In this document: piece after piece, positions 17,920 to 36,906 of the stretch
Position numbering within the stretch: the stretch's first letter is position 1
How the letters are laid out: every line of letters begins with the position of its first letter
Sequence record: MT446422.1
Source: Escherichia virus TH57
DNA length: 64,000 nucleotides
Reading direction: 5' to 3' (one strand)
Notes under the pieces: generated by a model
The model's input: only the letters and a program-made list of their open reading frames with translations
Databases searched by the model: none
Told to the model about the DNA's origin: nothing
Translations under genes and position numbers: made by a program

Positions 17920-18477
17920 ATGAACGAAATTAAATTAACCAAGAATAACTATGTAAATAATAAAGAGCTTTTGAAAGCTATTTCGGAGTGGAAACAGAAG
18001 CTGAATGCGAACACCGACCCGAACAAAATTATTCGCCAGAACGATGTTATTGGTCTGGCGATTATGCTTATAGCCGAAGGTCTTAGCAAACGTTTCAACT
18101 TCTCCGGATATACCCAATCCTGGAAGCAAGAAATGATAGCAGACGGAATTGAGGCCGCAATAAAAGGTCTTCATAACTTCGACGAAACAAAATACGATAA
18201 TCCACATGCTTACATAACAATGGCTTGCTTCAATGCTTTCGTTCAGCGTATCAAAAAAGAACGTAAAGAAATGGCAAAGAAATATAGCTACTTCGTCCAT
18301 AACGTATATGATTCACGTGACGACGATATGGTGGCTCTGGCTGATGAAACATTTATCCAGGACATCTACGACAAAATGACACAGTACGAATCCTCTTTAG
18401 TTAAAGCGCCAGGGTCTGATAAGAGCGCCAAAGATAAAGAAGGTGATTTGGATTTTTTATATGGAACATCAATTTGA
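17920..18477 (+). CDS. 55: late-transcription sigma factor gp55
   Basis: 185 aa; long stretches identical to recalled T4 gp55. Confidence 0.92.
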
Positions 18478-26473: not shown

Positions 26474-29188
26474 ATGCAAGAATTTTATTTAACTATCGAA
26501 CAAATCGGTGACAATCTGCTTGAACGATACATTGACAAGAACGGTCATGAACGTGTTCGTGAAATCCCTTATGCTCCATGCTTGTTTATGCATGCCCGTG
26601 AAGACCAGGCTGCAAAGTATACAGACATCTATAATAAAGGTTGTGTGAAAAAAGAATTCGATTCCATGCGTGATGCATCCCAGTGGATGAAGCGAATGAA
26701 TGACATGGGTCTCGAAGCTATGGGTATGGATGACTTTAAACTCGCATACTTGTCCGACCGTTACCCGCACGAAATCAAATACGATTCAAGTAAAATCCGT
26801 GTGGCTAACTTCGATATCGAGGTGACATCTCCTGATGGGTTCCCTGAGCCGTCTGAAGCACGTCACCCTATTGATGCCCTGACGCACTATGATTCGGTAG
26901 ACGATAAATTCTATGTCTTTGACCTTTTGAGCTCACCATACGCCACTGTGGAGCAATGGTCTATCGATATTGCTGCTAAGCTGCAAGAAGATGGCGGCGA
27001 TGAAGTCCCCGAAGAAATCCTGGAAAAAATTGTTTATATGGCCTTCGATTCAGAAGAAGAAATGCTCCAGCAGTATTTGGTATTCTGGAACGAGAAAACT
27101 CCGGTTATGTTGACTGGTTGGAACATCGAGAAGTTTGATATTCCATATATCTACAACCGCCTTAAAAATGTGTTTGGTGAAGCTACGGCAAAACGTCTGA
27201 GTCCACATCGTCGTACAAAAGTTAAGGTCATTAACAACGGATTCGGTGAAGAACAAGAAATCATTCAGATTCTGGGTATCTCTGTTCTGGATTATCTGGA
27301 CCTGTATAAAAAGTTCAGCTTCACAAACCAACCATCTTATTCGTTGGATTATGTTGCAGAATCTGAGCTGGGTGTTGGTAAACTCCCGTATGATGGTCCG
27401 ATTTCTAAACTGCGTGAATCAAATCACCAACGGTATATTTCTTATAACATCATCGACGTTTATCGTGTTGTGCAGATTGACCGTAAGCGACAGTTTATTA
27501 ACCTAAGCCAGTCAATGGGTTATTATGCAAAAATGCAGATTCAGTCTGTATTCAGCCCAATCAAAACTTGGGATGCGATTATCTTTAACAGCCTGAAGAC
27601 GCAAAACAAAGTCATTCCGGAAACCAAATCGCATGTTCGCCAATCGTTCCCTGGTGCATTTGTTAAGGAACCGATTCCGAACGCATACAAATACGTTATG
27701 AGCTGTGACTTAACATCTCTGTATCCGAGCATCATCCGACAGATTAACATCAGTCCAGAAACGATTGCCGGGTCATTTGCACCTGCGCCGATGTACGAAT
27801 ACATTGCAGGAACTGCTGACCGTCCATCTGATACATTTAGTTGTGCTCCAAACGGTATGATGTATTTTAAAGATGTTGCGGGTATTATTCCGACAGAAGT
27901 CACCAAGGTGTTTAATCAGCGTAAAGAACACAAAGGCTATATGCTTGCGGCTCAACGTAATGGTGAACTGATTAAGGAAGCTCTGCGTAATCCAGGAACT
28001 GGTACAACCGAGCCTGAAGTTGATTATCGTTATGACTTTGATGACAATATGAAAACAACCTTGCATGGTCTGAATCAAACAGTCCTGAATGGTATGTTGT
28101 ACAAAGCGCAGATGGAAGAAGTTGCTGGTATGACCGCACAGATTAACCGTAAACTGCTTATCAACAGTTGTTATGGTGCTCTGGGTAATATCTGGTTCCG
28201 TTACTTTGACCTGCGAAATGCAACCGCGATTACATCTTTCGGGCAACTTGCATTGCAGTGGATTGAGCGTAAAGTTAACGAATATTTTGATAGTGTTTGT
28301 GGTACAAGTGGTGAAACATATGTATTCTATGGCGATACTGACTCCATTTATATCCAGTGCGATAACCTGATTAAAAAGGTTGGTGGCGAATCTAAATTCC
28401 GCGATACAAACCACCTGGTTGACTTCATGGACAAGTTTGCGAAAGACCGTCTGGAACCAGCAATCGATAAAGCTTTCCGTGAACTAGCTGAATACATGAA
28501 CAACAAACAGCACCTTATGTTTATGGACCGTGAAGCGATTGCATGTCCTCCACTTGGTTCTAAAGGTGTTGGTGGATTCTGGACGGCGAAGAAGCGTTAT
28601 GCTCTGAACGTGTACGATATGGAAGGCACACGATATGCTGTTCCGAAACTGAAAATCATGGGTCTGGAAACTCAAAAGTCGAGCACACCAAAAGCATGTC
28701 AGAAAGCTCTGAAAGAATGTATCCGCCGTATGTTGCAAGAAGGTGAAGAATCTCTGCAGACGTACTTCAAGGAATTCAACAAGGAATTTAATGAGCTTAA
28801 TTACATGACCATCGCAGGTGTATCATCGGTTAACAACATCCAGAAATATAATGAGGGTGGTTTCCCTGGATTTAAGTGTCCGGCTCATATCAAAGGCGTG
28901 CTTGCTTACATGCGTGCAACCAAAGGGCTGAAGACTGTTCCACAAATCATGGAAGGGGAAAAGGTGTATGTGCTTCCTCTTAAAGTTGGTAACCCGTTTG
29001 GCGAAACCGTGATTGCGTGGCCATCAGGGATTGAACTCCCGATTGAAATTCGTGACCAAGTCTTGCAGTGGATGGACTACAACACACTGTTCCAGAAGAC
29101 TTTTGTTAAGCCATTGACAGGGTTCTCTGAAGCAGCTAAGGTTGATTACGAGAAAAAAGCATCTCTTTTTGATATGTTTGACTTTTAA
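26474..29188 (+). CDS. 43: DNA polymerase gp43 (family B)
   Basis: 904 aa, uninterrupted; exonuclease and polymerase motifs (FDIE, YGDTDS). Confidence 0.95.
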   Translation: MQEFYLTIEQIGDNLLERYIDKNGHERVREIPYAPCLFMHAREDQAAKYTDIYNKGCVKKEFDSMRDASQWMKRMNDMGLEAMGMDDFKLAYLSDRYPHEIKYDSSKIRVANFDIEVTSPDGFPEPSEARHPIDALTHYDSVDDKFYVFDLLSSPYATVEQWSIDIAAKLQEDGGDEVPEEILEKIVYMAFDSEEEMLQQYLVFWNEKTPVMLTGWNIEKFDIPYIYNRLKNVFGEATAKRLSPHRRTKVKVINNGFGEEQEIIQILGISVLDYLDLYKKFSFTNQPSYSLDYVAESELGVGKLPYDGPISKLRESNHQRYISYNIIDVYRVVQIDRKRQFINLSQSMGYYAKMQIQSVFSPIKTWDAIIFNSLKTQNKVIPETKSHVRQSFPGAFVKEPIPNAYKYVMSCDLTSLYPSIIRQINISPETIAGSFAPAPMYEYIAGTADRPSDTFSCAPNGMMYFKDVAGIIPTEVTKVFNQRKEHKGYMLAAQRNGELIKEALRNPGTGTTEPEVDYRYDFDDNMKTTLHGLNQTVLNGMLYKAQMEEVAGMTAQINRKLLINSCYGALGNIWFRYFDLRNATAITSFGQLALQWIERKVNEYFDSVCGTSGETYVFYGDTDSIYIQCDNLIKKVGGESKFRDTNHLVDFMDKFAKDRLEPAIDKAFRELAEYMNNKQHLMFMDREAIACPPLGSKGVGGFWTAKKRYALNVYDMEGTRYAVPKLKIMGLETQKSSTPKACQKALKECIRRMLQEGEESLQTYFKEFNKEFNELNYMTIAGVSSVNNIQKYNEGGFPGFKCPAHIKGVLAYMRATKGLKTVPQIMEGEKVYVLPLKVGNPFGETVIAWPSGIELPIEIRDQVLQWMDYNTLFQKTFVKPLTGFSEAAKVDYEKKASLFDMFDF

Positions 29189-31418: not shown

Positions 31419-31752
31419 TATCGATTTATCTGATTTAGATAATTTCGAGAAAGATGCGGAGGGAGCTAAGGCTCCTTCTGTGCCTTACTACGAAAAAAGT
31501 TTGGAGATTATCCGGCAATCCATGGGAACCGTACGACAGGAAATTCTGTTATCACTCCCTGATGGGTCCAATCACATTGTGTACGTAACCGGAATTAAAA
31601 TTGAACCATCTGGAAAAGTTTCCGTTGATTTCGGCACCCCTTCTGAAGACCGCAAAGCGGAGCTTGCAGTGCATGTAGAAAAGTGTGTTACAATGCAAAT
31701 ACAAGATGAAATTGATAAGATTAAAATGAAAAAGAGGTGGTGGAAGTGGTAG
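31408..31752 (+). CDS. 40: gp40-like protein (positional)
   Basis: 114-aa ORF between uvsX and 41 as in T4. Confidence 0.5.
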   Translation: MMNDIDLSDLDNFEKDAEGAKAPSVPYYEKSLEIIRQSMGTVRQEILLSLPDGSNHIVYVTGIKIEPSGKVSVDFGTPSEDRKAELAVHVEKCVTMQIQDEIDKIKMKKRWWKW

Positions 31753-33176
31753 AAACTATTTTATCCCAGCTACTCTTTAACAAGGAATATTTTGTTAAAG
31801 TCTGGCCATATCTTAATAACACATATTTTGAAAAGGGTCCAGCAAAGACCCTTTTTAATACGATTAACGAACACGTAAAAGAATATCAAGCGGTACCAAC
31901 TAAGACTGCACTTGATATCGCGCTCGACAGTTCTGACCTTTCTGAAGTCGAATATGAAGGCACAAAGAAACTCTTAGGAGTCCTGGCCGATACTCCAGAA
32001 GACCAGGAATGGTTGGTCAAAGAAACCGAGAAGTATGTACAGAAGTCTGCGATGTTCAATGCCACATCCAGGATTATCGAAATCCAGAGTAATGCCGAAC
32101 TTCCAAAAGATAAACGTGATAAACGAATCCCAGATATTGGGGCTATCCCTGACATCATGCGCGATGCATTGTCCATCTGTTTTGACTCTGCTCTGGGGCA
32201 TGACTGGTTAAACGATTACGAAGCTCGATTCCAGACTTATCTGAACAAATCGAAGAAGGTTCCGTTCCGTATTAACATCCTGAATAAAATCACGAAGGGT
32301 GGAGTTGAGTACGGCACAGAGAACGTTTTACTGGCCGGGACAAACGTCGGCAAATCCCTTGGACTTTGTTCGTTAGCGGCTGACTATCTTCAGACTGGTC
32401 ATAACGTGCTTTATATAAGCATGGAAATGGCTGAAGAAGTATGTGCCAAACGTATTGATGCCAACTTGTTGGATGTATCTCTGGATGATATTGATGAAGG
32501 TCATGTGTCATGGGCAGAATACAAAAGTAAGATGGAAAAATGGCGTGCTTCCGGGACTCTCGGGACTCTGAAGATAAAACAATATCCAACTGGGGGCGCG
32601 CATGCGGATACCTTCCGTGCATTACTGAACGAGTACAAACTGAAGCAAGGATTTGTACCGGATGTGATTATTGTTGACTACCTGGCAATCTGCGCAAGCT
32701 CAAGACTGAAAACGTTTACCGAAAACAGTTACGGCCTGATTAAGATGGTTGCAGAAGAACTTCGTGGTCTGGCGGTCGAGAAAAATGTGGTCCTGTGGAC
32801 TGCAGCACAGACAACCAGGGGCGCAAACGTTGCAGCTGAGATTGACATGGCTGACATCGCAGAATCCTTTGGTATTGCTCACACGGCTGACTTTATGTTG
32901 GGTGTTGTTGAGACCGAAGAATTCGCTCAAATGGGACTGCAGTTAATCAAACAGCTTAAGTCTCGTTATGGCGATAAGAACTACTATAATAAATTCAAGA
33001 TGGGTGTTAAGAAAGGTAATCAACGCTGGTATGAGGTTGATGATGATTCAGCTCCTAAACAAGGCCCTACGGTGAAAGAAGCCACTGGTGAGATGAATCG
33101 TCAGGCTGAAATGAATAGACAAACCAGGGTCAACAGGAGCGACCTGGATGACCTTGCCGCTCAAATGAAATTTTAA
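31746..33176 (+). CDS. 41: replicative DNA helicase gp41
   Basis: 476 aa from GTG with GAGGTGG SD, N-terminus aligns with T4 gp41; Walker A GTNVGKS. Confidence 0.9.
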   Translation: MVETILSQLLFNKEYFVKVWPYLNNTYFEKGPAKTLFNTINEHVKEYQAVPTKTALDIALDSSDLSEVEYEGTKKLLGVLADTPEDQEWLVKETEKYVQKSAMFNATSRIIEIQSNAELPKDKRDKRIPDIGAIPDIMRDALSICFDSALGHDWLNDYEARFQTYLNKSKKVPFRINILNKITKGGVEYGTENVLLAGTNVGKSLGLCSLAADYLQTGHNVLYISMEMAEEVCAKRIDANLLDVSLDDIDEGHVSWAEYKSKMEKWRASGTLGTLKIKQYPTGGAHADTFRALLNEYKLKQGFVPDVIIVDYLAICASSRLKTFTENSYGLIKMVAEELRGLAVEKNVVLWTAAQTTRGANVAAEIDMADIAESFGIAHTADFMLGVVETEEFAQMGLQLIKQLKSRYGDKNYYNKFKMGVKKGNQRWYEVDDDSAPKQGPTVKEATGEMNRQAEMNRQTRVNRSDLDDLAAQMKF

Positions 33177-33184
33177 AATATTTT

Positions 33185-33209
33185 AAAAGGGGCTTACAGC
33201 CCCTTTTTC
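33185..33209 (+). terminator. rho-independent terminator
   Basis: GGGGC-TTACA-GCCCC followed by TTTTT. Confidence 0.7.
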
Positions 33210-33215
33210 TTATGT

Positions 33216-33247
33216 TATAATGACCCTATCAACTACTGGAGAATAAA
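33216..33247 (+). promoter_or_regulatory. early promoter cassette, CATCAACTACTG leader type
   Basis: TATAAT, then GACCCTATCAACTACTGGAGAATAAA ATG. Confidence 0.55.
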
Positions 33248-33565
33248 ATGAAAACTATTGATTGCAAAGCGGAATACAAAGTTTATTATCATGGCTCAAG
33301 CTCTAATGCTGGAATCCAAAATATGCTTTGCCCTCCTGATGCAACTGGTGTTCTGTCAGAAGTTGGGCGCAAGAAAAATTTAGGGCGTGTGTTTTTTACT
33401 GAAGATATTGGTTTGGCCCGTATCTATGCAGGAAGAGCAGCTCGCTCGTATGGAGGAGAACCCCGTCTTTATCGTGTGATTGCACCTGTTGACGTGGTTT
33501 GTTTAAATGATACTAAAGGTGCTACAGTTTATCACGCTGACTGGGCCTTCTGTGAGGAAATCTAA
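33248..33565 (+). CDS. hypothetical protein
   Basis: 105-aa ORF directly behind a terminator-promoter cassette, between 41 and dmd. Confidence 0.5.
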   Translation: MKTIDCKAEYKVYYHGSSSNAGIQNMLCPPDATGVLSEVGRKKNLGRVFFTEDIGLARIYAGRAARSYGGEPRLYRVIAPVDVVCLNDTKGATVYHADWAFCEEI

Positions 33566-33778
33566 ATGTATAAATTAGAGAACGTAGTGTTTATTGGTTG
33601 GTTTGAAAATGGTAATATGTTTACCAAAGAAACTGCACTAGATGTTAGCGACCAAAATATGATTGAATGGGTCACAGTGCAGTATGCAGAAGTGAATAAT
33701 GCGCTGGTGAAAGCCTTTGTTAATGACAATAAAGTTTTTGAATATGATTATCGTATCCACTTATCTGAGGAAATCTAA
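33566..33778 (+). CDS. dmd: Dmd antitoxin (inhibitor of RnlA/LsoA-type toxins)
   Basis: 70 aa; VVFIGWFENGNMFTKE...YAEVNNALVKAFVNDNKV closely matches recalled T4 Dmd; position downstream of 41. Confidence 0.75.
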   Translation: MYKLENVVFIGWFENGNMFTKETALDVSDQNMIEWVTVQYAEVNNALVKAFVNDNKVFEYDYRIHLSEEI

Positions 33779-34120
33779 ATGGCTTTTAATCCAGAAGACC
33801 GCGTAAAAGTAACAATCAAAGTGAGTGCTGTTGGTGTACCATCTTTTGAACGTTCTAGCATGTTCCACCCAGCAGGTATTCACTGGTATGTCCAGAAGAC
33901 TGCTGATAACTATAATGCACTGGTTGAAGCTTTTGTTGATGACAAGCTAATTCATAAAGTAGACATGCGTAAGGGTACTGCATTGCGTAATCTGATTTTG
34001 ACCGTTGAAGCTCAACTGGTAAATGAAGAAATCTGCCTTACTGATATTGAAGCAGCTCTTCATATTGCGCGTGCTGAATATTACAACTTGACTGGTTTTT
34101 CAGTTGAAGGCGAAAAATAA
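33779..34120 (+). CDS. Dmd-like paralog
   Basis: 113 aa; shares the NALVEAFVDDKLI core with the adjacent Dmd. Confidence 0.5.
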   Translation: MAFNPEDRVKVTIKVSAVGVPSFERSSMFHPAGIHWYVQKTADNYNALVEAFVDDKLIHKVDMRKGTALRNLILTVEAQLVNEEICLTDIEAALHIARAEYYNLTGFSVEGEK

Positions 34121-34178
34121 GTGTACAACAAAGGGATAATGCTGTATATTATCCCTATCAACTACTGAGGAGATTGAA
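34121..34178 (+). promoter_or_regulatory. early promoter cassette with inverted repeat, CATCAACTACTGA leader type
   Basis: GTGTAC; AGGGATAAT...ATTATCCCT inverted repeat around -10; TATCAACTACTGAGGAG leader. Confidence 0.55.
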
Positions 34179-34472
34179 ATGAAAAAGTTATTAATTGCAG
34201 CAATTCTTACCGTAGCATCATGTGGTACAGCTCCAGTTACTGCTGGGCTTGATAAAGACCTTTGTGAGTGGTCTATGACCGCTGACCAGACTGATGTTGA
34301 ACATCAGATTTATGCTGATATCATGAACATAACTAAACGTGACCGTCCTGATATGGTTAAAGAAGTGTCTGACCAACTGGCTTCTGGTGACGTTATGCAG
34401 TATAACTATGTTCTGTATTGCGATGCTTCATTCGACAACAGCAAAATTGTTCAATGGGTTACAGGTGAATAA
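34179..34472 (+). CDS. sp: spackle-like periplasmic protein Sp
   Basis: 97 aa, signal peptide with lipobox-like VASC; size and position match T4 sp; CEWSMTADQT motif. Confidence 0.6.
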   Translation: MKKLLIAAILTVASCGTAPVTAGLDKDLCEWSMTADQTDVEHQIYADIMNITKRDRPDMVKEVSDQLASGDVMQYNYVLYCDASFDNSKIVQWVTGE

Positions 34473-34473
34473 A

Positions 34474-34911
34474 ATGATTAACAGAAATTTGGTTATCAAA
34501 AAACTTCGCTGTAAAAATCCAAATGCGCAAGCATACAGAGTGTTTTGGAGCGACGAGATTCAATATCTGGGTTATTTTCTTGTTGACAGTGATAATAGAA
34601 TTACGTTTGCTCATAAGCTTCTTAACAAAGAATTAAACCATTGGCAAGAACTTATTGCAGTCAAGTCTAAATTATTTTCATGCAATGCAATGCACCAATT
34701 GGTTTATTTTTTCGCTGATGGTATTCCTGACAAGGTTGAGTTTGAAGGGTTTGAATTTAAAGACATCAATCCAGACAATGAATTGAATAATGATGTTGTT
34801 AATATGGGTATCCCTGGTAAGTACATCAAAAACAGTCTTTTGAAAATTCTGGAAAATCCTGTTTATTCAGTTGACGACCAAATTTTTAATGCCTTTATGA
34901 AGCGAGATTAA
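34474..34911 (+). CDS. hypothetical protein (61.2 position)
   Basis: 145 aa from in-frame ATG after sp stop; C-terminus DDQIFNAFMKRD. Confidence 0.5.
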   Translation: MINRNLVIKKLRCKNPNAQAYRVFWSDEIQYLGYFLVDSDNRITFAHKLLNKELNHWQELIAVKSKLFSCNAMHQLVYFFADGIPDKVEFEGFEFKDINPDNELNNDVVNMGIPGKYIKNSLLKILENPVYSVDDQIFNAFMKRD

Positions 34912-34912
34912 T

Positions 34913-35269
34913 ATGAGTTATTATAATTTTCTGAATTTTGAACTGGCCAGCAATAATGATGGTAATGCTCGTTATGAATTTCGTGAGCCTCGGTTTAATC
35001 AGGCGATTGGTTATATTATCGTTAAAGATGATGTTATCATAAAGGCTCGCTCATTTATGGTAATGGATGGACCTTATGAAGATACTCGTGGATACCCATT
35101 TGATAAAAAGAATGTGCGCGATTGCGCAATCTGGATAACTGGGAACCCTGAAATTGGGGTCATGATATCTACTGAAGCGAATGACATTCTGGAAGGGGTA
35201 GCCAAAGCTCAAGAACCGCCTACTGATATTGATGACCAGATTTTTAATGCCTTCATGAAGCGAGGTTAA
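34913..35269 (+). CDS. hypothetical protein (61.1 position)
   Basis: 118-aa ORF; C-terminus DDQIFNAFMKRG repeats the upstream gene tail. Confidence 0.5.
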   Translation: MSYYNFLNFELASNNDGNARYEFREPRFNQAIGYIIVKDDVIIKARSFMVMDGPYEDTRGYPFDKKNVRDCAIWITGNPEIGVMISTEANDILEGVAKAQEPPTDIDDQIFNAFMKRG

Positions 35270-35270
35270 T

Positions 35271-35492
35271 ATGTTTGTTTTGACCCAATTCTCTAAAGCA
35301 ATATATAGTTACTCTTGCCAGTGGGAAGTCTTTATTGATACTCCTTCGCCTAAGTATGGTGTTTTTGGACGAGTAACTACTCAAGCTTATGTTGCACGAC
35401 CGACTAAACGTCAGATTCGTAAACTTAAAAAGGCACATCGTCAATTGATTAAAAGAAGGGAACAATATGAGTGCAATGTGTACGGGCTCTAA
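35271..35492 (+). CDS. hypothetical basic protein
   Basis: 73-aa ORF. Confidence 0.45.
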   Translation: MFVLTQFSKAIYSYSCQWEVFIDTPSPKYGVFGRVTTQAYVARPTKRQIRKLKKAHRQLIKRREQYECNVYGL

Positions 35493-35877: not shown

Positions 35878-36906
35878 ATGTCATATATTGATAAAGAATT
35901 TGCGGTCAGAGCTTTATCGTATCAACCACGTTATAGAGAAGTCACCGGGAGCACATTTAAAGCAAACTGTCGTTGTAAGGTTTGCGGGGACTCCCAGAAA
36001 GATTCACATAAGGCTCGATTCTGGGCGTATACCAATCCGTCTGATGGTGCGGTTTACGTGAAATGTTTTAACTGTGACTACTCCACGCATATAAGCAAAT
36101 ACATAAAAGAGTTTGAGCCGGATTTGCACCGGGAATATATGGTTGAGAAGTACAAGGAAAATGCCTTCGGTCGACAACGTAATGAAGTTGCAGAAACTCC
36201 GAAAGAACCAGAAAAAACTCCGGTTATTGAAGAGCTTGCTTTTTGCGAAAGAATCGATACTTTACCAGAAGCACATCCGATAGTTAAGTATGTGAAAAGT
36301 CGGTGTATTCCGAGCAATGTTTGGAACCGGTTATGGTTTACAAACAAATGGCCTGCATTAGTTAACTCCGTTAATCCTGGGACGTATAAGAATGAAACGA
36401 ATGAACCACGCTTGGTTATTCCTATCTTCAACGGCAAAAAAGAAATCGAATCTTTCCAAGGACGAGCTCTTCGCAAAGATGCACCACAAAAATATATCAC
36501 AATCAAAGCTCACCCAGAAGCTTCCAAAGTCTATGGCGTAGACAAGATTGATGAGCGCAAGCGCGTGTGGGTAATGGAAGGTCCGATTGATAGTTTGTTT
36601 ATCCCTAACAGCATTGCGATAACCGGTGGAACATTAGCATTGGAAGCCGTTCCTTATGCTGAAACCCGAGTATGGGTAATGGACAACGAGCCAAGACATC
36701 CGGATACGATTAAACGTATGAAGAAACTCGTTGAAGCTGGCGAAGCTGTTATGTTCTGGGACAATGCACCATGGCATACGAAAGACATAAATGAGATGGT
36801 TAAATCGGAGGGTGCAACCCCTGAACAAATCGAATCATATATGGCCGATAACGTTGCTCAAGGGCTGATGGCGAGAATGCGACTTTCGAAGTACGCAAAA
36901 GTTTAG
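35878..36906 (+). CDS. 61: DNA primase gp61
   Basis: 342 aa; N-terminal zinc ribbon CRCKVCGDS...CFNC; same length as T4 gp61. Confidence 0.9.
   Translation: MSYIDKEFAVRALSYQPRYREVTGSTFKANCRCKVCGDSQKDSHKARFWAYTNPSDGAVYVKCFNCDYSTHISKYIKEFEPDLHREYMVEKYKENAFGRQRNEVAETPKEPEKTPVIEELAFCERIDTLPEAHPIVKYVKSRCIPSNVWNRLWFTNKWPALVNSVNPGTYKNETNEPRLVIPIFNGKKEIESFQGRALRKDAPQKYITIKAHPEASKVYGVDKIDERKRVWVMEGPIDSLFIPNSIAITGGTLALEAVPYAETRVWVMDNEPRHPDTIKRMKKLVEAGEAVMFWDNAPWHTKDINEMVKSEGATPEQIESYMADNVAQGLMARMRLSKYAKV

Follow-up and report, generated by a model that had tools for sequence, protein, structure and literature searches.

One described counter-defence factor of T4-like phages is AdfA, anti-DarT factor A, the product of T4 gene 61.2, which is now named adfA (PMC9391042, PMC11257639). 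AdfA binds DarT1, and it still does so when fused to T18 at its C-terminus; a single substitution in its body, R164H, switches binding (PMC11257639), an effect indicating that the body of AdfA carries the determinant of toxin specificity. This anti-DarT activity, i.e., DarT1 binding and neutralisation, is known for the RB69 and T4 alleles only (PMC11257639). Together with dmd and tifA (61.4), whose product is an anti-ToxN factor, adfA belongs to a region that Srikant et al. propose to be an anti-toxin island (PMC9391042). Here we compare with this system two adjacent genes, ORF1 and ORF2, of Escherichia virus TH57 (sequence record MT446422.1), both of which end in the same short module encoding a C-terminal tail; the whole 64,000-nucleotide stretch that was analysed is referred to as the window.

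Two further systems offer points of comparison. PeSLs (promoter-early stem-loops) mediate modular shuffling in T4-type phages; each combines an early promoter with a stem-loop and lies, as a short repeat, where genes of a hyperplastic region have been inserted, deleted or replaced (PMC2839356, PMC4122927), a setting shared by the ORF1/ORF2 module; PeSLs are intergenic, whereas the module is coding, has neither of the two PeSL parts and is conserved as a peptide. In gp43, gp55 and gp33, the C-termini that bind the gp45 clamp are short hydrophobic peptides, each of which follows a flexible linker and brings its protein onto a common partner, an arrangement to which the tail of ORF1 and ORF2 can be likened.

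Two tandem genes with a common 3' module

The window derives from a Gaprivervirus, a T4-like coliphage with 95% identity to VR20, TH15 and SP18. ORF1 and ORF2 lie directly 3' of spackle (sp), the slot that gene 61.2 (adfA) occupies in T4. The features concerned are listed below, the two junctions being read from the sequence.

ORF1, 34474..34911, + strand: 145 aa; probable single-domain member of the AdfA superfamily (phrog_8539, JS98 orf30 type)
ORF2, 34913..35269, + strand: 118 aa; probable single-domain member of the AdfA superfamily (phrog_4122, RB32 ORF033c type)
Tail copy 1, 34870..34911, + strand: VDDQIFNAFMKRD, then TAA
Tail copy 2, 35228..35269, + strand: IDDQIFNAFMKRG, then TAA
Translational-coupling junction 1, 34900..34915, + strand: AAGCGAGATTAATATG, in which the last codons contain GAGA, similar to a Shine-Dalgarno sequence, and TAA overlaps the ATG of ORF2
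Translational-coupling junction 2, 35258..35273, + strand: AAGCGAGGTTAATATG, with the Shine-Dalgarno sequence GAGG, TAA and the overlapping ATG of ORF3

The original prediction had correctly described both ORFs and their shared 3' end, for which it gave 5 mismatches in 43 bp; the count is 4 mismatches, both within those 43 bp and over the full repeat of 45 nt (34871-34915 versus 35229-35273), three of them synonymous (GAC/GAT, CAA/CAG, TTT/TTC) and one altering the last residue (GAT Asp/GGT Gly). Both copies encode DDQIFNAFMKR(D/G) followed by TAA, and the next ATG overlaps the stop as TTAATATG. In its final ~12 nt, the module thus provides the next gene with a Shine-Dalgarno sequence and a start overlapping the stop, with the endings CGA-GGT, AGA-GGT and AAA-GGT all providing a Shine-Dalgarno sequence 6-7 nt 5' of the overlapping ATG. 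The last four tail codons are under this extra constraint, and rare codons (CGA, AAG) are shared there. The scan of positions 34866-35273 found no promoter-like or terminator-like sites at the module, and RNA structure at the two copies does not exceed that of shuffled controls (z = +2.0 and +0.5). A search of the whole window for further copies, as had been suggested, gave no third one, either as DNA (a degenerate 43-nt pattern matches 2 sites only, and 0 in 100 shuffles) or as a peptide (a six-frame search allowing up to 5 substitutions returns the two known copies only); the additional copies are found in related phages (see below).

ORF1 and ORF2 are probably diverged relatives of AdfA

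The carriers of the tail occupy one locus. The gene order is sp, 61.2 (AdfA), 61.1 in T4; sp, AdfA, 033c, 61.1 in RB32 and AR1; sp, orf30, orf29 in JS98; and sp, ORF1, ORF2, ORF3 in this phage, in which ORF1 takes the position of AdfA and ORF2 the second position, like 033c of RB32. As with adfA, both genes are located 3' of sp and 5' of 61.1 and the primase gene. The same tail ends the AdfA proteins of T4, RB32 and AR1 (206-210 aa), the 033c proteins of RB32 and AR1 (118 aa, ORF2 type), orf30 of JS98 (144 aa, ORF1 type) and the Gaprivervirus genes, and in all these carriers an ATG directly follows the tail stop. RB69 AdfA ends likewise, as the adfA primer in PMC11257639 encodes ...IFNAFMNRG-stop. 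Thus, ORF1 and ORF2 share with AdfA both the slot after sp and an identical C-terminal tail, the latter being seen also in the match of positions 197-211 of the Pfam AdfA family (PF23813) to residues 104-118 of ORF2. They differ from it in size and domain content: full-length AdfA has ~206-216 aa, with apparently two domain copies before the tail, whereas ORF1 and ORF2 have one body domain each.

By BLASTP only the last 18 residues of ORF1 and ORF2 align, and the earlier description of the two genes as otherwise dissimilar holds for this comparison only; profile and structure comparisons relate the bodies. When the last 14 residues are removed, hhalign still aligns ORF1 to ORF2 (P = 0.0094), ORF2 to the C-terminal and N-terminal halves of AdfA (P 0.0011 and 0.0013, respectively) and ORF1 to the N-terminal half of AdfA (P 0.0013 over 73 columns), the observed scores exceeding 200/200 column shuffles for all three pairs. 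The homology of the bodies, by which membership in the proposed wider AdfA superfamily is defined here, is thus independent of the tail. In searches with HMMER, the ORF2-family profile matches AdfA residues 113-210 with an E-value of 4.6e-8. Conversely, the Pfam AdfA model, with a gathering cut-off of 27 bits, matches residues 21-118 of a T2-type ORF2 orthologue from Tequatrovirus (P0014) to its positions 112-211 at 32.4 bits, and it scores 26.1 bits with the metagenomic protein P0027 and 450 bits with T4 gp61.2. The ORF2 type aligns to the C-terminal half of AdfA, which is the closest match of ORF2, and ORF1 to the N-terminal half. A body motif is also recognisable by eye, YLGYFLVDSDNRI in ORF1, AIGYIIVKDDVII in ORF2 and, occurring twice in T4 AdfA, SRFVFVKNNEII and YVGGIFVKDNRI, with the common pattern G-x-I-x-V-K-D-N-x-I.

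AlphaFold2 models show the same order of elements in both bodies, i.e., four to five strands, a helix, a strand, a helix and the tail, except that the last body helix is absent from the ORF1 fold. The ORF2 model consists of a body (1-100) with strands at 6-15, 18-25, 30-38 and 41-47, a helix at 65-76, a strand at 82-85 and a helix at 87-100, followed by a linker (101-106) and the tail helix (107-115). In the ORF1 model, the folded body (1-101) has strands at 5-11, 19-25, 30-37, 42-51 and 56-59, a helix at 70-81 and a strand at 87-91; residues 102-145 are conserved, are modelled at low confidence, with helices at 116-125 and, for the tail, at 135-142, and end in the tail. The bodies reach pLDDT values of 76-94 by 10-residue block, and the tails only ~54 (ORF2) and ~36 (ORF1). 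Structure prediction of the C-termini, which had been proposed as a check, thus returns a short amphipathic helix of low confidence outside the folded body. The last 30 residues hardly vary across the ORF1 family, although the model shows them as disordered. Foldseek searches of BFVD pair the two families reciprocally, since the ORF2 model matches an ORF1 orthologue and the ORF1 model matches an ORF2-family entry (E ~2e-4, TM 0.44-0.53); a further match of the ORF2 model, a 212-aa protein, is probably AdfA-like. Among solved structures, the ORF2/ORF1-type fold had generic matches only.

On our reading, AdfA contains two copies of the ORF1/ORF2-type domain, ORF1 being a single-domain relative most like its N-terminal half and ORF2 a single-domain relative of its C-terminal half. 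We therefore consider it probable, with some reserve, that ORF1 and ORF2 are tandem, very diverged paralogues of the AdfA (T4 gp61.2) superfamily that carry a tethered docking tail. Rather than sitting on unrelated proteins, as the original prediction had assumed, the shared peptide belongs to new members of a known anti-defence family, encoded at one locus.

The tail is conserved as a peptide

The tail consensus, (I/V)DDQIFNAFM(K/N)(R/K)(G/D)-stop, comprises 13 residues. Searched with tblastn, it occurs at 902 places in 706 phage records, and the module is thus present in homologues well outside the window. Counted by record, the bodies are of AdfA type in 487 cases, of ORF2 type in 332 and of ORF1 type in 85, and this sum of 904 against 902 tails indicates that essentially every tail is explained by the three body types. 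Degenerate DNA patterns detected no other tail carriers in IMG/VR, GTDB genomes or metagenomes, the non-phage matches being internal or out of frame and at chance level. When 1.84 billion representative proteins were searched exhaustively with HMMER, only seven matched, which implies that the family is small; searches with a 68-column alignment and with single proteins gave few candidates, the word index being insensitive here. The string QIFNAF appeared in no paper found by literature search.

Divergent metagenomic members keep the tail at 26-46% identity to ORF2 (P0019 and P0027, the latter 26% identical) or at 36-37% identity to ORF1 (P0032 and P0035). In the contigs examined (P0019, P0027 and P0032), the gene lies directly 3' of sp or at the equivalent position 5' of primase. 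Tail-keeping members span at least four genera plus uncultured phages, and body-based searches disclosed just two core variants, both rare (A to S and M to L). The linker 5' of the tail, which is rich in Pro, Gln, Glu and Lys, varies among members in sequence and length, and insertions and deletions lie directly before the tail.

Several Tequatrovirus genomes and contigs contain truncated remnants of ORF2- or AdfA-type genes (P0010 and P0012, 33 aa; P0009 and P0013, 64 aa; L046) that keep the last 33-64 residues including the tail; P0051 (63 aa) is instead a frameshifted N-terminal piece. It seems that in these remnants the body degrades and the 3' end, with the ribosome-binding site of the next gene, is retained.

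Among 25 distinct tail DNAs, 8/11 possible synonymous single-base changes are seen in the 9-codon core, compared with 1/70 possible non-synonymous changes (Fisher P = 4e-8). Since synonymous sites vary while the peptide is fixed, selection acts on the peptide and not on the DNA. For the window's own two copies, an identical peptide written over 11 codons in the phage's codon usage would be expected to show 5.5 nucleotide mismatches, and 3 are seen (P(<=3) = 0.12); with a mismatch count this near expectation, a conserved peptide and a conserved translation-start junction account for almost all of the DNA repeat. Together, these data show that the tail was inherited from the common ancestor of the family and has been held by purifying selection on the peptide.

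Gain and loss of the second gene at the repeat

T4 corresponds to RB32 minus exactly one body-plus-tail unit. The two tails of RB32 are identical over ~38 nt, and T4 AdfA ends in NRG, as does the 033c tail of RB32; RB32 AdfA itself ends in NKG. The NRG ending of T4 is therefore the product expected of a crossover between the two tails of an RB32-type arrangement. In JS98, an ORF1-type gene with an ...RG ending is followed directly by ORF3, without ORF2, and the junction lies inside the module. VR26, the closest ORF1 relative, also lacks ORF2 and keeps the ...KRD ending, which places its junction in TTAATATG and makes the event an independent one. In this regard, T4 is known to rearrange and recombine at short homologies, down to 6-10 bp (PMC9391042). 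The tail repeat is thus shown to be a real crossover site for gain and loss of the second gene, as a secondary consequence of its conservation.

The module does not consist of the intergenic early promoter and stem-loop terminator of a PeSL, being coding and unstructured as RNA. As its DNA is not conserved beyond coding needs, cassette gain and loss is best seen as a by-product and not as the selected function. Hence, the proposal that the repeat is a recombination linker is supported in that the breakpoints of second-gene presence or absence fall inside it, and it fails in that the DNA is not maintained beyond what the peptide and the ribosome-binding site need.

A putative docking helix and its alternatives

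Each protein would have a body of ~100 residues, alpha/beta in fold and fast-evolving, joined by a linker that differs in length among members to an amphipathic helix, invariant in sequence, at the C-terminus. The module would then represent the coding sequence of the helix plus the coupling junction, its last two codons acting as the Shine-Dalgarno sequence and its stop overlapping the next ATG. The peptide is conserved but, in the models, not docked on the protein that carries it, and it has remained invariant although the bodies have diverged to the detection limit; we therefore infer a tethered helix with an external partner, i.e., one conserved partner common to all members. Candidates for this partner are the targeted toxin, through its conserved core, and a protein of host or phage, and the variable body would supply specificity. 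The combination of a variable specificity body with a constant docking or effector helix is accordingly the reading that we favour, and a functional C-terminal tag is likely. The invariant peptide, the free synonymous sites, the variable linker and the low-confidence model all fit the interaction tag that had been suggested from the repeat, and what has to be abandoned is the idea that its carriers are unrelated.

A more specific form of this proposal, which we put forward only tentatively, holds that the tail is a portable 13-residue docking helix, the working part common to a whole set of phage anti-toxin factors, and binds one conserved site, on either a DarT-type catalytic core or a hub protein of host or phage. 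The rapidly evolving AdfA, ORF1 and ORF2 types of body would then give specificity for different toxin variants, and phages would widen their counter-defence through duplication, splitting and exchange of the bodies in front of an unchanging tail, with the tail repeat as the crossover point.

Several points weigh against reading ORF1 and ORF2 as AdfA relatives with a docking tail. The bodies are related by weak profile scores (HHalign probability 4-20%), and neither protein reaches the PF23813 cut-off, as ORF2 scores 20.6 bits through its tail only (residues 104-118 to model positions 197-211) and ORF1 has no match. The identical tail improves the Foldseek E-values, and the models were built on shallow alignments of 14-15 sequences, in itself a possible cause of the low confidence in the tail. 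Part of the tail DNA sample was retrieved by patterns requiring the peptide, which biases the synonymous/non-synonymous count; body-based searches give the same picture. The putative docking role itself is read from the conservation pattern and the low model confidence.

Among terminal peptides of this phage, the gp43 end SLFDMFDF loosely resembles QIFNAFMK through the pattern [LI]-F-[DN]-x-F, a weak resemblance that serves as a lead only. The clamp peptides have motifs of the type SLFDMFDF or (S/T)LDFL(F/Y) at the extreme C-terminus, whereas three more residues follow the motif in the tail, which is not within 5 substitutions of any other window peptide. The gp43 end KKASLFDMFDF (29165-29188) is identical to the clamp-binding peptide of RB69; where the gp43 motif differs between T4 and phages of the RB69 type, the tail does not appear to change with it. 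The 11-residue C-terminus of gp55 is encoded at 18445-18477.

The repeat might instead be selected at the DNA level, as a linker kept, like PeSLs, for the swapping, insertion or deletion of cassettes by homologous recombination. In favour of this, breakpoints of the second gene fall within it in at least three comparisons (T4 with RB32, and JS98 and VR26 with this phage), five different genes are found 3' of the tail junction, the RB32 tails share ~38 identical nt and T4 recombines at homologies as short as 6-10 bp (PMC9391042). We nevertheless consider such a linker unlikely, since synonymous sites vary freely between phages and between the window's copies while the peptide is fixed, the identity of the copies is not significantly above that predicted for an identical peptide, and the module, coding and devoid of promoter-like or terminator-like sites, lacks the defining parts of PeSLs (PMC2839356, PMC4122927); recombination looks more like an outcome of the repeat than like the function selected for. 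A nucleotide-level signal for expression of the downstream gene, be it a ribosome-binding site or coupling signal, a MotA-dependent middle promoter or an RNA structure, is more improbable still. The last ~12 nt (GCGAGRTTAATATG) do hold a Shine-Dalgarno sequence and the overlapping stop/start, the rare codons CGA and AAG are shared, and a similar coupling cassette, GAGGAAATCTAAATG, ends another gene pair in the window; however, such a signal accounts for the last four codons only, the 27-nt core upstream varies at third positions, and the module has neither promoter-like or terminator-like sites nor structured RNA (see above). In T4, AATGCTTTTA followed 12 nt on by TAATAT resembles, on our reading, a MotA box with a -10 element. 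A MotA-box middle promoter in the T4 tail was dropped as a candidate, as the Ala codon in the core of the box varies (GCT/GCC/GCA/TCC).

Because conservation is at the amino-acid level, and the tail lies outside the modelled fold and always exactly 3 residues from the stop, it might also act in cis as a nascent peptide that arrests or pauses the ribosome before the stop and tunes termination-reinitiation at the next start. The next start overlaps or directly follows the stop in all but one of the examined copies (L027, 12 nt further), and the conserved block, 4-12 residues from the C-terminus, lies where we would expect tunnel contacts to occur. This explanation has little probability: the residues closest to the peptidyl-transferase centre are variable at all three positions (K/N, R/K and G/D), the downstream genes differ among phages with no obvious need for shared regulation, and the tail resembles no arrest peptide known to us. 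Least probable is a shared end of no special function, left over from tandem duplication or gene conversion in the recent past. In its favour, the two genes are neighbours on one strand, and the tails within a genome have lineage-specific states in common (in Gaprivervirus MKR and the codon GCC, in Tequatrovirus MN(R/K) and GCT). The pattern of divergence already contradicts it, given that BLASTP finds nothing between the bodies outside the tail, the copies differ at 3 of few synonymous sites, and the tail is kept at 26-46% identity to ORF2 or 36-37% to ORF1 across the genera and uncultured phages noted above. Concerted evolution or gene conversion was likewise set aside on weak evidence, with just two lineages available for the shared states and the window copies differing at 3 synonymous sites. 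The docking helix, held by selection on the peptide, thus remains the preferred reading.

The neighbouring genes and the anti-toxin island

The region is flanked by the helicase gene 41 (31737-33176) and the primase gene 61 (35878-36906), between which the order is dmd, a dmd-like paralogue, sp, ORF1, ORF2, ORF3 (DUF7279), a 63-aa ORF, and 61.1. The neighbours that bear on the comparison with T4 are:

dmd, 33566-33778
dmd-like paralogue, 33779-34120: 113 aa
sp (spackle), 34179..34472, + strand: conserved left neighbour; the first tail-bearing gene lies directly 3' of it in every phage examined
ORF3, 35271..35492, + strand: DUF7279, a Pfam family shared with T4 gp61.4 (TifA)

The window thus resembles the T4 anti-toxin island (dmd, tifA/61.4 and adfA/61.2; PMC9391042) in having dmd with a dmd-like paralogue, sp, two AdfA-superfamily genes and a DUF7279 gene. 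It differs in that two single-domain relatives replace one two-domain AdfA and in that the TifA-family gene follows the AdfA-type genes. ORF3 and T4 gp61.4 (TifA; L005, 3613-3870) match Pfam DUF7279 with E ~1e-20 each, and ORF3 is therefore a TifA-family gene placed 3' of the AdfA-type genes; it is one of the five different genes seen directly 3' of tail junctions across phages. In two uncultured relatives (L025 and L027), the DUF7279 gene is located 5' of sp instead, and MN01 lacks ORF3, with the junction at an AATATG microhomology.

Residues 30-65 of the dmd-like paralogue match Dmd profiles (Pfam Dmd, E 0.0017; PHROG Dmd, E 8.8e-6), and the string NALV(K/E)AFV(N/D)D is common to the dmd product and its 113-aa neighbour. 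From their sequences, the two genes look like a second diverged pair of tandem paralogues in the same island. SP18 lacks the 113-aa gene. The gene at 33248-33565 and dmd both end in (C/S)EEI-stop, encoded as GAGGAAATCTAAATG (33547-33568 and 33760-33781); this cassette, with its Shine-Dalgarno sequence, stop and next ATG, parallels the end of the tail module.

Just after gene 41, a strong hairpin at 33185-33221 (AAAAGGGGCTTACAGCCCCTTTT) overlaps a sigma-70-like promoter (CTTACA-17-TATAAT), and this element looks like a PeSL. Its -10 element and leader (TATAATGACCCTATCAACTACTG, 33216-33238) are repeated before sp (34145-34167), beside a hairpin at 34132-34156. In one uncultured T4-like phage (L025, 1871-2491), an HNH endonuclease gene that the window lacks lies between gene 41 and the dmd region.

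Implications for phage counter-defence

To our knowledge, AdfA is among the few known phage inhibitors of DarTG, and the understood part of its mechanism is its binding to DarT. The superfamily is here widened by two gene types, present in 332 (ORF2 type) and 85 (ORF1 type) genomes, which adds to the candidate anti-toxin factors in coliphages of the type used in therapy. For the study of phage genomes, the locus illustrates that what looks like a short 'DNA repeat' between neighbouring genes may reflect conservation of an encoded peptide and nevertheless serve as a natural point of deletion or insertion. The invariant, probably unfolded C-terminal peptide (e.g., SIDDQIFNAFMNRG) offers an experimental handle that can be deleted, mutated or used as bait, and the invariance of this tail is the part of the finding most worthy of experiment.

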